A DNA stretch of 64,000 nucleotides from an uncultured Gammaproteobacteria bacterium. Lineage in GTDB: Bacteria > Pseudomonadota > Gammaproteobacteria > Steroidobacterales > Rariloculaceae. The notes under the pieces were generated by a model that worked only from the letters and a program-made list of their open reading frames with translations, made no database searches and was not told the origin of the DNA. The position numbers and the translations under genes are program-made. This document shows positions 5,124 through 48,320 of the stretch, one piece after another; the first letter of the stretch is position 1, and every line of letters starts with the position of its first letter. The stretch is taken from NCBI GenBank assembly GCA_963741255.1, contig CAVUHM010000005.1, positions 32,750 to 96,749 on the forward strand, read 5' to 3'.

Positions 5124-5258
5124 GGGATGACGTTGTGTTAAATATCAGCCAGTTATATGCACAAGTGCGTGTGATGCATGACGCCTTATCGGCACGAGCT
5201 TACGAGCGTTTGACGAAAGGTTGCGGAATCTTCGGATGTGGCTCCGAAGTCACGCCAA

Positions 5259-5264
5259 TATAAT
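5259..5264 (+). promoter_or_regulatory. Candidate -10 box (TATAAT) for the MBL/DUF1592/DUF1552/ankyrin operon
   Basis: A perfect TATAAT lies in an unusually AT-rich roughly 140-bp spacer (5124-5306). It is about 43 nt upstream of a GTG start at 5307 that has a GGGAG RBS. I saw no good -35 box. Confidence 0.3.
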
Positions 5265-5306
5265 GAGTTAGCCGTCGCGTCGGCGGCCAACGGGTTGGGA
5301 GCTCAA

Positions 5307-6248
5307 GTGTTGGCGCAGGTTTCGCGCAGGACATTGATCGATACCGCGGTACGGGGCTTCGTCGGAGCCTCGCTGGGCGCCGCTTTGAGCGTCGATTCGT
5401 TGCTGGCCCAGCCTGCGGCCGTGCGCCGCGAGACTCGCGACCTCGGTAACAGCTTCCACGTGCTGACGCTCGGCGAGACGAACGTGCTCGCGGCCACGGA
5501 CCCGACCGGAATCACGCTCGTCGACGGTGGCCCGGCCGCGCAGGCCGATGCGCTCACGACGATGCTCCGCGCGTTGCCGAATGCCGGCAAGGTCCACACG
5601 TTGTTCAACACGCACTGGCATCCGGAGCAGACGGGATCGAATGAATCGCTGGGTGAAGCCGGCGCGACGATCATCGCGCAGGAAAACACGAAGCAATGGT
5701 TGACGACCGACGTCACCTGGCCATGGAACGACGAGACCGTGAAGCCGCTGCCGAAGGTGGCGTTGCCGAACAAGACGTTTTTCGGCGAGGCGGAGCTCAA
5801 CATAGGGGGCCGCCGCGTGAAGTGCGGGCACTTACGCGACTGCCCGCACACGGACGGCGATCAGTACGTGTTCTTTCCCGACGACAACGTGCTCGCCGTC
5901 GGCGACGCAGTCAACGGTGCCGCTTGGCCGTCGATCGATTGGTGGACAGGCGGCTGGATCGGCGGCATGGTCGGCGGCCTCGACATGCTGTTCTACGTCG
6001 CGAACAAGGACACGCGGATCGTGCCGGCTCGAGGTCCCGTGCTCACGCACGCGGACTTGCGCAAGCACTACGACATGTACAGCGTGATTTGGGAGCGTCT
6101 CGTGAAAACGTTGTACAGCGGCGGTGGCCCGAAGGAAGCGTTGGCCGCGAAGCCTACGCAGGAGTTCGATGCCATAATGGGCCCGTCGGACGTCTTCGTG
6201 GAACGCGCATTCCAGAGCCTGTGGGCTTATCTATCTCCGGATGCCTAG
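5307..6248 (+). CDS. Tat-exported MBL-fold metallo-hydrolase
   Basis: Part of ORF 5238-6248. A GTG at 5307 after GGGAG gives VLAQVSRRTLIDTAVRGFVGASLGAALS, a twin-arginine signal. The metal motif is NTHWHPEQTG. The upstream in-frame start at 5238 would overlap the candidate promoter. Confidence 0.8.
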   Translation: MLAQVSRRTLIDTAVRGFVGASLGAALSVDSLLAQPAAVRRETRDLGNSFHVLTLGETNVLAATDPTGITLVDGGPAAQADALTTMLRALPNAGKVHTLFNTHWHPEQTGSNESLGEAGATIIAQENTKQWLTTDVTWPWNDETVKPLPKVALPNKTFFGEAELNIGGRRVKCGHLRDCPHTDGDQYVFFPDDNVLAVGDAVNGAAWPSIDWWTGGWIGGMVGGLDMLFYVANKDTRIVPARGPVLTHADLRKHYDMYSVIWERLVKTLYSGGGPKEALAAKPTQEFDAIMGPSDVFVERAFQSLWAYLSPDA

Positions 6249-10013: not shown

Positions 10014-11633
10014 ATGACGGTCCGGGCGGCTGCTCTGGCATTGGCCCTGCTCGGCGCGGCAGCGACCGCGGCCGGTCAATCGCTGCTCGAAGCCGCGGAG
10101 GCCGGCGACCACGACGCGGCACTCGCCGCGTTGAAAGCGGGCGGCGACGTCGATGCGCGTGGACCGGACGGAACGACGGCGCTGATTTGGGCCGCGTACA
10201 ACGCTGATGCAACGCTCGTCGAGAAGCTGGTCGACGCCGGTGCTGATGCGAACGCGAAGAACGCGTTCGGCGCTTCGGCGCTATCCGAGGCTGCGATCGG
10301 CGGCTACGCGGACGTGATCGCGGCGCTGCTCGAGGGTGGCGCGGACGCCAACATCACGAATCCCGAAGGCGAGACACCGTTGATGGCCGTGGCGCGCACC
10401 GGCCACGTCGAGGCGGCCACGCTGCTGCTCGACGCTGGCGCGGACGTGAACGCGATCGAGCTCTGGGGACAGCAAAGCGCACTGATGTGGGCCGCGGCAC
10501 AGAAGCAGCCGGAGATGATCAAGCTGCTGATCGCGCGCGGCGCGAACGTCGACGCTCGTGGCGCCGTCCGCAACTGGGAGCGCAAGGTCATCAAGGAGCC
10601 GCGCCCGAAGGACATGAATCAGGGCGGCTTCACGCCGCTGTTGTACGCGGCGCGCGAAGGGTGCATCGACTGCGCGCGCGAGCTCGTGGCGGGCGGGGCG
10701 GATCTGAACTTGCCGGACCCGCATCGCGTGACGCCTCTGATCATGGCGCTCTTGAACCTGCACTTCGATTTCGCTGCGTACTTGATCGAAGCCGGCGCCG
10801 ACGTGAACAAGTGGGATCTCTACGGCCGCTCGCCGCTGTACATGGCCGTGGATACGAGCACGATTCCTGTGCAAGGCAACGGCTCGATGGTCGTGTTGCC
10901 GAGCATGGATAAGCTGCAGGCCATCGACGTCGCCCGCCTGTTGCTCGACAGCGGTGCGAACGTCAACGCGCAGCTGAAGCGCCGGCCGCCGTACCGCAAC
11001 GTGCCGCAGGATCGCGGCGGCGACTCGATCCTATCGATGGGCGCCACGCCGTTGCTGCGTGCCGCGCGCGCCGGCGACACGCCGATGGTGAAATTGTTGA
11101 TCGAGCGCGGCGCGCTCGTGGACCTGCCGAGCAATCAGGGCGTCACGCCGCTGATGGCCGCCGCGGGCGTCGAGTACGGTCTGCGCGTCACGCGCGGCCG
11201 CAATCGGACCGAGGAAGGCGTGCTGACGACGATGCGTGCGCTGCTCGATGCCGGCGCCGACATCAACGCGCGGATGCTCGTGGAGCCGCAGGGCGACGCC
11301 GCGGCACACCTGCTCGTGATCGAGCAGCGTCTCTCCGACTATCGTTACGACTACCGCGGCCGGCAGGTGCCGAGCGCGCGCGCAATCCCGCATCGAACGG
11401 CGCTGCACGGCGCCGCGATGAAGGGGTTCACGCCGATCGTGAAGTTCTTGGCCGAGAACGGCGCGGACCTGTACGCGAAGGACGCGAACGGGCGGACGGC
11501 GCTCGACCTCGCCGAGGGCAACTACAACGAGCAGTTCCTGCGCCAGGCCGCGGAGCCGCACGAGGAGACCGCCGCGGTCCTGCGCGAGCTGATGGCCGCG
11601 CACCCGCCGCCCGCCCAACTCTCCGCCAACTGA
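10014..11633 (+). CDS. Secreted ankyrin-repeat protein
   Basis: Intact 539-aa ORF that starts 3 nt after the DUF1552 stop. Has a signal peptide and many ANK units (GxTALxWAAxxGxxxxVxxLLxxGADVNA). Confidence 0.9.
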   Translation: MTVRAAALALALLGAAATAAGQSLLEAAEAGDHDAALAALKAGGDVDARGPDGTTALIWAAYNADATLVEKLVDAGADANAKNAFGASALSEAAIGGYADVIAALLEGGADANITNPEGETPLMAVARTGHVEAATLLLDAGADVNAIELWGQQSALMWAAAQKQPEMIKLLIARGANVDARGAVRNWERKVIKEPRPKDMNQGGFTPLLYAAREGCIDCARELVAGGADLNLPDPHRVTPLIMALLNLHFDFAAYLIEAGADVNKWDLYGRSPLYMAVDTSTIPVQGNGSMVVLPSMDKLQAIDVARLLLDSGANVNAQLKRRPPYRNVPQDRGGDSILSMGATPLLRAARAGDTPMVKLLIERGALVDLPSNQGVTPLMAAAGVEYGLRVTRGRNRTEEGVLTTMRALLDAGADINARMLVEPQGDAAAHLLVIEQRLSDYRYDYRGRQVPSARAIPHRTALHGAAMKGFTPIVKFLAENGADLYAKDANGRTALDLAEGNYNEQFLRQAAEPHEETAAVLRELMAAHPPPAQLSAN

Positions 11634-11650
11634 CACGCGCCGCGAGAATT

Positions 11651-11725
11651 AGGTGCCGGTGTTACGGTTTCGGTTGAACCGAAGTGCCGGTGTTTCGGTT
11701 GAACCGAACCGTAACACCGGCACCT
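11651..11725. repeat. REP/REPIN-like nested palindromic element, copy 2 (75 bp)
   Basis: AGGTGCCGGTGTTACGGTTTCGGTTGAACCGAAGTGCCGGTGTTTCGGTTGAACCGAACCGTAACACCGGCACCT. The outer 19-bp arms are perfectly complementary (11651-11669 with 11707-11725). The inner palindrome TCGGTTGAACCGA occurs twice. The element lies 18 nt after the ankyrin stop codon. Confidence 0.9.
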
Positions 11726-11797
11726 CTTGACGCGCGTCGCATTCGGACCACCGAACCGCGTGGTAAATTGCGGCCGGGTCCCAAGGGGAGCACCACC

Positions 11798-12163
11798 ATG
11801 ATGAGAGCTCTGACGTTATTGGCCGCCGCTCTGGCGTGCGGATGTGTGTCGTACAAACCGGTGCCGCTGACGAACGGTGTTCTGCCGCGCGGCGCCGTGC
11901 TGGTCGGCGATGATGTGCGCGTTGTGAAGCGCGACGGCGAAGCACAGCGATTCAGAGTTGCAGGCGTCGAGAACGGCGTGCTGACCTCTTCGGACGGCGA
12001 GACCATCAACCCTGCGGACCTCACGGTTCTCGAGCGGAAGACCACCGATAAGAAGGCCACGATCATCACGCTCAGCGTGATCGGCGGTGTGATCCTGACC
12101 GGACTCGTGCTCGAGGAGATCGACGATTGCGAGGACGATCCGTTCTGCGACGACTACTATTGA
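11798..12163 (+). CDS. Small putative lipoprotein or membrane-anchored protein
   Basis: Internal ATG of ORF 11684-12163, preceded by an AAGGGGAG RBS. N-terminus MMRALTLLAAALACGC, a C-terminal TM segment (IITLSVIGGVILTGLVL) and an acidic Cys-containing tail. The ORF-track start at 11684 lies inside the repeat element. Confidence 0.6.
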   Translation: MMRALTLLAAALACGCVSYKPVPLTNGVLPRGAVLVGDDVRVVKRDGEAQRFRVAGVENGVLTSSDGETINPADLTVLERKTTDKKATIITLSVIGGVILTGLVLEEIDDCEDDPFCDDYY

Positions 12164-19079: not shown

Positions 19080-19604
19080 ATGCCGATGCAGGCGGAATCG
19101 CTCGAGGTTCTGGAGAAAGCCAGCGTTGCACCGGCGCAAGCGCGTGCGTTCGTGCGCGCGATCGAAATCGAGATCGCCGGAGCCAAGGACACGCTCGCGA
19201 CGAAGCACGACCTGTTATTGCTGCGACAGGATTTTGACGCGTTGCGCGTGGATCTGCGTGGCGAGATGACCAAGCTCGACTCCGGGTTGCGCGGTGAGAT
19301 GACCAAGCTCGAAGCCGGGCTGCGGGGCGATATGACCAAGCTCGAAGCCGGGCTGCGGGGCGATATGACCAAGCTTGAAGCCGGGCTGCGCGGCGATATG
19401 ACCAAGCTTGATGTCGAGTTGCGCGGCGAAATGGTAAAGCTCGGCGCGAAGTTCGACACCGATCTCGCGAAAGGACTGGCCGAGGTGCGAGCGCAGATCG
19501 CAATCAGCGTGGGCGGCGTCACGCGCCAGATGTACCTGGCTATTCTGGGTCAGATGGCCGTCCTGCTCGGGTTCGCCTATTTCTTCGCCACGCATCTGCG
19601 TTGA
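19080..19604 (+). CDS. Coiled-coil, C-terminally TM-anchored protein with six 11-residue repeats (DUF1640-like)
   Basis: Intact 174-aa ORF. The repeats LRG(E/D)MTKL(E/D)(A/S)G occur six times and are followed by the TM segment MYLAILGQMAVLLGFAYFFA. A TTGACT (19046) and TATCAT (19071) pair lies immediately upstream of the ATG. Confidence 0.75.
   Translation: MPMQAESLEVLEKASVAPAQARAFVRAIEIEIAGAKDTLATKHDLLLLRQDFDALRVDLRGEMTKLDSGLRGEMTKLEAGLRGDMTKLEAGLRGDMTKLEAGLRGDMTKLDVELRGEMVKLGAKFDTDLAKGLAEVRAQIAISVGGVTRQMYLAILGQMAVLLGFAYFFATHLR
19254..19451 (+). repeat. In-frame tandem repeat, 6 x 33 bp
   Basis: Units start at 19254, 19287, 19320, 19353, 19386 and 19419. Units 3 and 4 differ by a single base (ctc/ctt). 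Confidence 0.9.
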
Positions 19605-38680: not shown

Positions 38681-39698
38681 ATCGATACGCATGGACGGCG
38701 GCGCTCGGCGCCGCTTCGATCGCAGGCCCCGGCGCGCAGGCCCATCACAGCGTGTCTGCGTGGTTCGACACGACGGTCGAGATGGCGGAGGTCGAAGGCG
38801 TCGTGACGGAGCTCCGCTGGCAGAACCCGCACGTGATTTTCACGCTGCGCGTCGATGACGCGGACTGGAGCATCGAGACGCTGTCCACGAGCGGCATCAG
38901 CCGTTGGGGCATCACGCGCGATCTGATTGCCGTCGGCGATCGGCTGCGCGTCGCGGGCAATCCCGCGCGCCGCGAAGCGAATAGCCTGTTCGTGCGGAAT
39001 ATCCTGCTGCCTAACGGCCGCGAGATCGTGCTCGGCGGCGAATGCTCGTTGGTCCGGCGACACGCTGCGCGGCAGCGAGTTGCTCCAGGCGCGCGAGGGA
39101 GATGCGTCGCGGCCCGACCTCGGCCTGTTCCGGACCTGGAGCACCGGCGGCGTCAACGGCGTGCTGTTCCCGGAGGCCGTGCAGGCGAACTTCGATTTCA
39201 GCCGCTATCCGTTGACCCCCGCGGCGCGCGCCACGCTCGAGTCGTTCGACTTCGCGAGCGACGACCCGACCGAACAACTGCACGCCGAAAGGCATGCCGA
39301 CGATCATGGAGCAGCCGTATCCGATGGAGATCGTGGATCGCGGCGCCACGATCGAGCTCCTGATCGAGGAATACGACACGCGCCGTATCGTGAACATGCG
39401 GCCGACGGGGGTGTCGACACCGGGGCCGCTCGGGGTGTCCGTGGGGCGCTGGGAAGGTGCGACGCTCGTCGTCGTGACGACGCGCTCGACCTGGGGGCAT
39501 TTCGACAGCGTCGGTATTCCGCTATCGATCGACGCGGTGATGGTCGAGCACTTCACGCCGAGCGCCGACGGTGCGCGACTCGATTACAGGCTGAGCGTGA
39601 CGGACGCTTCGACGTTCATATCCGCAGTCGAGCTGACAAAAAGCTGGATCTGGCGCCCCGAGGTCACGCGCGGCGCGTACGAGTGCCGCCCCGCCTGA
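38677..39698 (+). pseudogene. Exported protein with a DUF6152-like N-terminal domain and a long C-terminal extension; two +1 frameshifts
   Basis: MNRYAWTAALGAASIAGPGAQAHHSVSAWFD...VTELRWQNPHVIF resembles the protein at 62313-62699. The path runs through ORFs 38377-39363, 38927-39703 and 39294-39698. The start overlaps the HAD stop (ATGA). Confidence 0.6.
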
Positions 39699-39701
39699 AG
39701 T

Positions 39702-39775
39702 AGGTGCCGGTGTTACGGTTCGGCTCAACCGAAGTGCCGGTGTTTCGGTTCAACCGAACCGTAACACCGGCACCT
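39702..39775. repeat. REP/REPIN-like nested palindromic element, copy 3 (74 bp)
   Basis: AGGTGCCGGTGTTACGGTTCGGCTCAACCGAAGTGCCGGTGTTTCGGTTCAACCGAACCGTAACACCGGCACCT, preceded by GT to give a GTAGG head. It fills the gap between the convergent stop codons at 39696-39698 and 39778-39780. Confidence 0.9.
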
Positions 39776-39777
39776 CG

Positions 39778-40206
39778 TCAGGGTTTGGCGTCGGCGACGA
39801 GGCCGGCTTGCTCGATGCCGTGAATGCAGACGGCTTCATCCTCTTCGCCCGTGCCGCCGCTAGCGCCGGCCGCGCCCAAGATCGCGCCGCTCGCGTCGCG
39901 GATCAACACGCCGCCGATCTGCGGCAAGAACTTGCCGCCGGCCGTCGCGGCCAGCGTGATGAAGAAGTTCGGGTTGTCCTTCGCGCGGCCGGCGAGCGCG
40001 CGGCTCGATGCTCCCATGCCGACAGCGGCCCACGCTTTACCGGTCGCGACGTCGTAGCGGAACATGCTGGCGCCGTCCTCGCGCTGCATTGCCTTCAAGT
40101 GGCCGGCCTCGTCCAGCACGACCACGGTCACGGGCTTGATCTTCATCGCGCGCGCCTTCTCGAGGGCCTTCGCGACGATTTGGTTGGCTTGGGCGAGGGT
40201 CAGCAT
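39778..40206 (-). CDS. GlcG/HbpS-like heme-binding protein (DUF336)
   Basis: Internal ATG of ORF 39778-40245. MLTLAQANQIVAKALEKARAMKIKPVTVVVLDEAGHLKA...GGVLIRDASGAILGAAGASGGTGEEDEA. Confidence 0.85.
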   Translation of the reverse strand: MLTLAQANQIVAKALEKARAMKIKPVTVVVLDEAGHLKAMQREDGASMFRYDVATGKAWAAVGMGASSRALAGRAKDNPNFFITLAATAGGKFLPQIGGVLIRDASGAILGAAGASGGTGEEDEAVCIHGIEQAGLVADAKP

Positions 40207-40358
40207 CTCTAAGTCCTCCGGCAATGAGCTCAAGGCCCGCAGCATAACGGCGGTTTCGGCGTTGGCAAGGCGGGGTGATAGTGGCGCACCCCGAGCGCGG
40301 TCTAGTAATGTGGCCGCTCCGAGCGCTCGCGCCGGAAGTAAGGAGACCCGATCCGATC

Positions 40359-48141: not shown

Positions 48142-48320
48142 TCGCCGTACGCGCTCACGAAGGTTGCTCCCGACCGACGGTCTCGCGCACAGGCGCTCAC
48201 GAATTCGCTCCTGCAATTCCTGCACGACCGCCATGCGCATGGCGGCGATGTGCGCAGACGAGCCCCAGGGACGGTCTTCCGGCGTGTCTCGGGAGCAACC
48301 TTCGTGAGCGCGTACGGCGA
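48142..48320. repeat. 179-bp unit bounded by perfect 30-bp terminal inverted repeats (MITE-like or long hairpin)
   Basis: TCGCCGTACGCGCTCACGAAGGTTGCTCCC at 48142-48171 is the exact reverse complement of 48291-48320. A degenerate direct copy of the left arm lies at 48173-48211. The unit sits between convergent genes, 4 nt from the rlmJ stop. Confidence 0.6.

Follow-up and report, generated by a model that had tools for sequence, protein, structure and literature searches.

The window, i.e. the whole 64-kb stretch of DNA analysed here (G+C 66.5%, GC skew positive throughout), contains three copies of a hairpin-forming element, all of them intergenic and with the same polarity on the + strand. 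Copy 2 (11651-11725, +), a full inverted doublet of a REP-like unit, starts 18 nt past the stop codon of an ankyrin-repeat gene (10014-11633, +) and ends 72 nt upstream of a small lipoprotein-like ORF (11798-12163, +); it is composed of AG plus the head GTGCCGGTGTTACGGT (11653-11668), the small hairpin TTCGGTTGAACCGAA (11669-11683), the spacer or loop GTGCCGGTGT (11684-11693), a second small hairpin (11694-11708) and the inverted head CCGTAACACCGGCAC (11709-11723), followed by CT. Copy 3 (39702-39775, +) has the same architecture (head 39704-39718, hairpin 39719-39733, spacer 39734-39743, hairpin 39744-39758 and inverted head 39759-39773) and fills the 79-nt gap between the convergent stops of a DUF6152-like gene (ending at 39698, +) and a GlcG/HbpS-like gene (39778-40245, -). 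Copy 1 (2262-2338, +) sits between a convergent TPR gene (398-2122, +) and an FMN_red gene (stop at 2380, -), and comprises the remnant AGCAACCGAA (2262-2271), a head (2272-2286), a hairpin that is 6 nt short (2287-2296), the spacer GTGCCGGTGC (2297-2306), a complete hairpin (2307-2321) and the inverted head (2322-2336). This compound layout is unusual and is common to the three copies despite their unrelated flanks.

A first-pass annotation of the sequence had described three copies of one element in these places, and our analysis located them there with a slightly different extent for copy 1 (2262-2338 instead of 2265-2337). The arrangement proposed for each copy, i.e. two direct and one inverted copies of a 17-nt unit, was recovered by a search with GTGCCGGTGTYWCGGTT allowing up to two mismatches, which returned exactly nine matches in the window, a number reached in none of 100 shuffles and to be compared with a chance expectation of 0.07 in these shuffles. 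The perfect 19-bp outer stem claimed for copy 2 is formed by the pairing of 11651-11669 with 11707-11725, the roughly four differences reported between copies 2 and 3 amount to three substitutions and one indel, and the inner shortening of copy 1 corresponds to 6 missing nt in its first inner hairpin. One-base differences between copies should not be over-read, because at least two genes of the window carry single-base indels. These are the FMN_red gene (2380-2951, -), with four single-base indels with respect to its ortholog, and the DUF6152-like gene (38704-39698, +), which is split over three reading frames; both adjoin element copies, and they could be explained either by sequencing indels or as pseudogenes. 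The 9-mer core GTGCCGGTGTT occurs 10 times in the 64 kb, nine of them within the three elements, and an nhmmer profile of 88 family arms detected no further credible arms in the window, hits outside the nine arm positions having E > 1.

The basic unit consists of a 15-16 nt non-palindromic head, (A)G|GTGCCGGTGTTACGG, followed by the small hairpin TTCGGyTsAACCGAA, and a window copy is the inverted doublet of this unit: head and small hairpin, a 10-nt spacer, small hairpin and inverted head. Each copy is thus one long imperfect palindrome forming a single hairpin of about 28-35 pairs (~33 bp) with GTGCCGGTG(T/C) as its 10-nt loop. Strong folding was predicted for the three copies both as RNA (dG -45 to -60 kcal/mol, z -5 to -11.6) and as ssDNA (dG -30 to -37, z -6.6 to -11.8). 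No intrinsic terminator with a T-tract was called at 11400-12000, the region of copy 2, and the right flanks of the copies (CTCTTG, CTCGTC and CGTTCA) lack the T/U-tract of a Rho-independent terminator. Two further repeats were noticed in the window: a perfect 32-nt inverted repeat (48142-48173 and 48289-48320) of sequence unrelated to the hairpin family, with 115 nt between its arms and located in a region devoid of obvious genes, and six tandem 33-nt repeats (19221-19476) that are 68-100% identical and probably encode an 11-residue repeat in an ORF.

Copy 1 is flanked by 161-nt direct repeats that are 90% identical. In the left repeat (2108-2268) the TPR gene ends and is followed, after a 16-nt spacer, by a detached copy of the final 42 codons and stop of the FMN_red gene; in the right one (2349-2509) the ~17 nt that end the TPR gene are present as a copy, next to the spacer and the 3' end of the resident FMN_red gene. 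Together they span the ancestral convergent TPR/FMN_red junction and, because of this, both genes keep a 3' end. The differences in the FMN_red part of the repeats distribute as 2/1/7 by codon position. In the orthologous locus L152 the TPR/FMN_red junction harbours a different insert of 1.2 kb, with ~35 nt of the TPR 3' end duplicated on its flanks. The duplication around copy 1 could have been caused by the insertion mechanism, by hairpin-provoked replication slippage or by selection for duplications that preserve overlapping gene ends. An assembly artefact is less likely, since L152 is also duplicated there and L151 shows the same left junction with the element.

The expectation of the first-pass annotation that the hairpins belong to a dispersed family with possibly uncatalogued sequence was borne out. 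The arm 20-mer was found at 16 loci in about 11 uncultured gammaproteobacterial species-representative MAGs, labelled as Gammaproteobacteria, Steroidobacteraceae or Chromatiaceae, and a pattern fixing only the 11-nt termini matched contigs, at least 120 in number, in metagenomes of soil, sediment, wetland and sludge. The carriers of the arms include long-read MAGs, examples being CAVZRR01, CAWBYP01, CAVSZK01 and SZOW01. Rfam 15 yielded no match at the gathering threshold in the whole window, and a literature search for the motif returned only primers and unrelated sequences. Across loci the termini, and usually about 20 nt of the arm, are conserved, and the inner arm splits into subfamilies, with the window type being ACGGTT(T)CGGTT and others including ACGGTTACGGT, CACTTATT, GTCTTATTTGAC and GAGTTGTTGAG; the core GTGCCGGTGTT is kept in subfamilies with differing inner arms, and the centres vary between loci, being always self-complementary. 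The 127 distinct simple hairpins have a median length of 56 nt, a median of 10 nt of perfect complementarity beyond the 11 nt set by the search pattern, and an MFE of -42.7 kcal/mol vs -26.1 with shuffled centres. In the outer flanks there is a weak bias towards A on one side and towards T on the other. The first-pass annotation had also pointed to a GTAGG head reminiscent of REP sequences, which does exist at copy 3 (39699-39703) and only there; as a family feature the GTAG head is ruled out by the flank logo of 332 distinct ends, with G at -1 in 90%, A at -2 in 55%, G at -3 in 40% and T at -4 in 16%.

The placement of the family with respect to genes is well defined. A coding-ORF stop codon was found no more than 60 nt from at least one end in 60 of the 94 elements whose flanks were long enough, and from both ends in 27; the median element-to-stop gap is 7 nt, and random positions reach 6%. 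None of the 94 lies inside the tested 3' ends of coding ORFs. Besides dimers, solo arms were seen as a minority (L003, L005, L006, L011 and L013), as well as arrays with up to four left units (L116). Four 17-mer matches in viral contigs were solo arms within coding sequence and were discarded as chance. A 'flank + left arm' tandem duplication is recurrent: at least 16 loci combine two to four left units with a single right one, a layout to which that of the window copies is comparable. Related to these duplications are short tandem repeats of 8-10 nt that abut element ends in L014 (521-763), L034, L035, L086, L093 and L133, the one in L014 being three copies of GGGGACAG, which fits the GGGGWSAS motif of TIRYT elements. 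Several metagenome contigs begin or end inside an element (L018, L063, L105 and L151), and another one, L134, closes with a fold-back palindrome (5258-5309 to its end); the repeat apparently breaks or confuses short-read assemblies.

As already noticed in the first-pass annotation, the window has no gene for a Y1 transposase, none being found by tblastn of the 64 kb. Beyond the window, a Y1_Tnp gene bracketed by the same inverted arms was identified in seven independent related loci (L035/L124, L117, L127, L086, L141, L142/L143 and L144). Four of these distinct loci are element-ascertained: a scan for Y---NP, a motif of class-2 Y1 enzymes, revealed ORFs of 290-306 aa adjoining the elements in L035 (= L124), L117, L127 and L086; a further Y1 ORF in L017 is more distant, 3 kb from the element. 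The other three (L141, L142 and L144) were fetched by protein sequence alone (54-66% identity) and the same arm bracket was present in 3/3. With the gene on the + strand, the L-arm (GTGCCGGTGTTACGG...) lies about 100-120 nt upstream and the R-arm (...CCGTAACACCGGCAC) at or just past the stop, encoding in L035, L117 and L144 the last residues (...KPKP*) and the stop codon itself. The ends of L142 carry head and small hairpin on both sides, GTGCCGGTGTTACGGT-TTCGGTTGAGCCGAA ... TTCGGCTGAACCGAA-ACCGCAACACCGGCAC, and differ very little from the two halves of the window element, which therefore is an inverted doublet of the terminal unit of the transposase gene, i.e. conforms to the definition of a REPIN. 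In about 98 kb of protein-fetched loci the only credible arms were those flanking the Y1 gene and, because of this, the abundance of the repeat per genome may be modest or lineage-specific. Two of the bracketed loci have additional features: in L141 an IS3-family insertion sequence (10934-12087; HTH_Tnp_1 and rve) lies between the Y1 gene and its two R-arms, and in L127 a second L-arm with Y1-leader-like sequence (1293-1479) starts ~100 nt past the 3' hairpin of the first unit and may represent a second unit in tandem, truncated where the contig stops.

The proteins encoded at these loci score 44-56 bits with Pfam Y1_Tnp (cutoff 23), and their sole NCBIfam match is REP_Tyr_transpos, at 62-64 bits below the equivalog cutoff of 80; the C-terminus (residues 223-288) gave sub-threshold matches to Bac_DnaA_C, HTH_38, HTH_23 and HTH_28. 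Alignments show no variation in HUH, in the Tyr of Y---NP or in a WSSH motif. Related contigs commonly carry homologous genes in which HUH and Tyr are intact, and the JGI annotation of homologues reads 'REP element-mobilizing transposase RayT'; in the plasmid collection all homologues were distant (up to 44% identity). The AlphaFold2 model of one of these proteins, P0061 (mean pLDDT 82), had as its best PDB structural match 4ER8 (E 4.6e-8, TMt 0.75), the E. coli TnpA_REP (YafM), a REP-associated tyrosine transposase bound to a REP hairpin, followed at ranks 2-29 by IS200/IS605 transposases. Searching the PDB by sequence, either with the single sequence or with a profile, did not reach 4ER8/TnpA_REP; in the profile search the C-terminus matched DnaA domain IV (E 0.015).

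Several observations bear on the mobility of the family. Target-site duplications (k ≥ 3, offsets 0-3) were found beyond chance in 0/147 elements, as expected for HUH Y1 enzymes, and the palindrome often extends into the flanks instead. The centres of elements in the same contig or genome have a median identity of 0.79 vs 0.54 between loci (Mann-Whitney p = 5e-6). At the ortholog of the copy-3 site in L150 (GlcG/DUF6152 junction, 88% protein identity) the stops overlap and there is no element; three more relatives are also devoid of it at this site but have different neighbouring genes. This occupied/empty comparison would be compatible with either gain or loss of the element. An occupied orthologous site is shared by L011 and L014, with differing internal structure, and the copy-1 site seems to be occupied in L151 (85% amino-acid identity), whose contig ends inside the element with the same left junction as copy 1; some insertions are therefore old.

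In their general organization the elements resemble the REP/BIME sequences and REPINs associated with RAYT (TnpA_REP) proteins, as known for E. coli REP/YafM (4ER8) and the REPINs of Pseudomonas fluorescens (PMC3116915, PMC3479197, PMC5581495). Common to both are short extragenic palindromes that combine as inverted doublets into a long hairpin, lie downstream of genes and lack target-site duplications, as well as a cognate Y1/HUH gene flanked by the same units in inverted orientation, with a fold that here is closest to TnpA_REP. Unlike those systems, our family has no GTAG/GTGG head and its unit joins a 15-16 nt non-palindromic head to a very small hairpin, whereas the transposase is about twice as long as a classical RAYT, carries a C-terminal HTH and falls below the NCBIfam RAYT equivalog cutoff. 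Judged by its domain architecture, the associated enzyme is of the HTH-bearing 'TIRYT'/Group 1 type (subclass 2.1) and does not belong to the classical RAYTs of GTAG-headed REPs. Subclass 2.1 is equated by Quentin et al. 2018 (PMC6006769) with TIRYT (PMC3733652) and with RAYT Group 1 (PMC5581495), and the proteins found here share with the TIRtron/TIRYT group a length of about 300 aa and a Y1 core joined to a Bac_DnaA_C/HTH_23/HTH_28-like C-terminus, the criterion used in PMC6006769. Also shared are long terminal inverted repeats (TIRs) that may overlap the 3' end of the gene and occur in addition as singles, dimers and clusters, in line with the moderately abundant TIR families described by Di Nocera et al. 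2013 (PMC3733652) in Stenotrophomonas maltophilia K279a.

There are nonetheless differences from the published members of this class. The GGGGWSAS motif common to many TIRYT TIRs (PMC3733652) is not in our arms, which begin (A)GGTGCCGG; GGGGWSAS-like sequences, GGGGACAG and GGGGAGAG, were limited to positions immediately beyond the arms in two loci, L014 and L144. Quentin et al. reported no REP-like secondary structures next to subclass 2.1 genes (PMC6006769) and Bertels et al. 2017 (PMC5581495) found the 16-mers flanking Group 1 genes barely repeated, at about 12 per replicon, whereas the arms described here form a clear REPIN-like hairpin population. With IS200/IS605 elements (IS608, ISDra2) the family shares the HUH Y1 catalytic fold, subterminal hairpins and the lack of target-site duplications, but the ends of those elements are not mutual inverted repeats, whereas ours are inverted copies of one unit, and those are multi-copy autonomous elements, whereas here a short gene-less form is dispersed. 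Correia/NEMIS, ERIC and RUP elements are likewise small and intergenic, with terminal inverted repeats and strong RNA hairpins; they are nevertheless MITEs derived from DDE insertion sequences with short target-site duplications, of which none were seen here.

The reading that we favour, with a probability of about 0.75, treats the window elements as members of a non-autonomous REP/REPIN-type family whose hairpins a RAYT-like, HTH-bearing Y1/HUH transposase would disperse in trans. The REP/REPIN-like character proposed in the first-pass annotation is upheld by the inverted doublets and by the same arms bracketing a RAYT-like gene in relatives. The family would have been created and spread by a single-strand-specific tyrosine transposase (RAYT Group 1 / TnpA_REP subclass 2.1 / 'TIRYT') whose gene would bear the same head-plus-hairpin units as terminal inverted repeats, and which may be encoded in the source genome outside the window or have been lost from it. 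We infer catalysis and mobilisation by the Y1 protein from the association of gene and arms and from the known behaviour of HUH Y1 enzymes (PMC3479197, PMC6006769); the process would involve a single-stranded DNA intermediate. Copies would survive where they are harmless, tight against stop codons, and would probably also act there as transcript-end hairpins. Against this reading stand the missing transposase gene of the 64-kb window, with a family that may be orphaned in the source genome, the sub-cutoff NCBIfam RAYT score, the lack of the classical GTAG head, the published subclass 2.1 survey with no REP-like structures near the genes (PMC6006769), an occupied/empty site comparison that would suit loss as well as gain, and credible arms limited to the flanks of the Y1 gene in the protein-fetched loci.

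An alternative is that a REPIN/TIRYT system lost its transposase and left the elements of this genome behind as immobile relics, now vertically inherited and slowly decaying. The centres of the window copies have diverged (identity 0.84-0.92), copy 1 is 6 nt short within a rearranged junction, and the sites shared by L011 and L014 and by copy 1 and L151 point to old insertions. No Y1 gene was found in the 64-kb window either, but RAYT-type genes are normally single-copy, so that its absence from 64 kb says little, and intact homologues abound in related contigs; we therefore regard such relics as an unlikely, albeit not negligible, explanation. It is more doubtful still that the hairpins are host-selected structures at transcript ends, i.e. 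terminators or mRNA-stabilising 3' hairpins, with convergence or gene conversion accounting for their similarity. They are indeed very stable, lie at a median of 7 nt past stop codons, in 27/94 cases between convergent genes, and show the weak A and T bias of their two outer flanks described above. Nonetheless, no T-tract terminator was called at copy 2, function alone fails to explain an invariant head of 11-20 nt across hundreds of unrelated genes in many species, and the arms that bracket the transposase gene in 7/7 loci would be left unaccounted for. A terminator role is compatible with the REPIN explanation as a secondary effect, not as an alternative origin.

Two other explanations appear highly improbable to us. 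An element of 40-100 nt whose ends are ~20-nt inverted repeats, shared with a gene-bearing 'full-length' form, would suit a classical MITE, i.e. an internally deleted derivative of a DDE-transposase IS moved by cut-and-paste via its terminal inverted repeats, but the gene of the full-length form encodes a Y1/HUH enzyme instead of a DDE transposase, the IS3-family insertion of L141, which has the only DDE gene encountered, is unrelated, and target-site duplications are lacking throughout. To the same small degree it could be argued that inverted pairs of a short recognition motif, either of DUS/USS-like uptake or as the operator of an HTH protein, form hairpins by chance, given the conservation of the core GTGCCGGTGTT across subfamilies with different inner arms and the DnaA-domain-IV-like HTH of the associated protein; the density of this core in the window, however, is far below that of uptake sequences, with all but one occurrence inside the elements, and solo arms are a minority and were never within the tested gene 3' ends. 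Integron attC sites were also considered and rejected: by eye, the arms misfit the RYYYAAC/GTTRRRY consensus of these sites, and the genes next to the elements do not resemble cassettes.

REPIN/RAYT systems attract study as 'replicators' that are long-lived and vertically inherited within bacterial genomes; to our knowledge, what is known about them comes almost wholly from the GTAG-type REPs of enterobacteria and pseudomonads. At the level of the window the message of our analysis is modest, namely ordinary dispersed repeats and no new kind of system or principle. The hairpins are a new, uncatalogued sequence family within the known REPIN/TIR-dimer repeats of a RAYT-like transposase, and this REPIN-like population is widespread in Gammaproteobacteria from soil, sediment and freshwater. 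We only tentatively entertain the idea that it is the first clearly REPIN-like population tied to an HTH-bearing Group 1/subclass 2.1 'TIRYT', with modular ends and duplication footprints. The ends could be built of an 11-nt terminus kept across lineages followed by fast-diversifying subterminal tandem repeats of 6-8 nt, and it is tempting to speculate that the latter could be what the DnaA-like HTH reads; similarly, the 'flank + left arm' duplications and the 161-nt duplication could be footprints of a distinct insertion or repair mechanism. Our study provides a defined repeat family and a candidate transposase for the largest and least understood RAYT class (Group 1/TIRYT) in abundant uncultured environmental Gammaproteobacteria. 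Biochemical work would thereby gain a candidate pair of substrate and enzyme, and strain typing a marker that would also help to explain assembly breaks in MAGs; hairpins located directly on stop codons, which probably shape the 3' ends of transcripts, could be annotated as members of the family.
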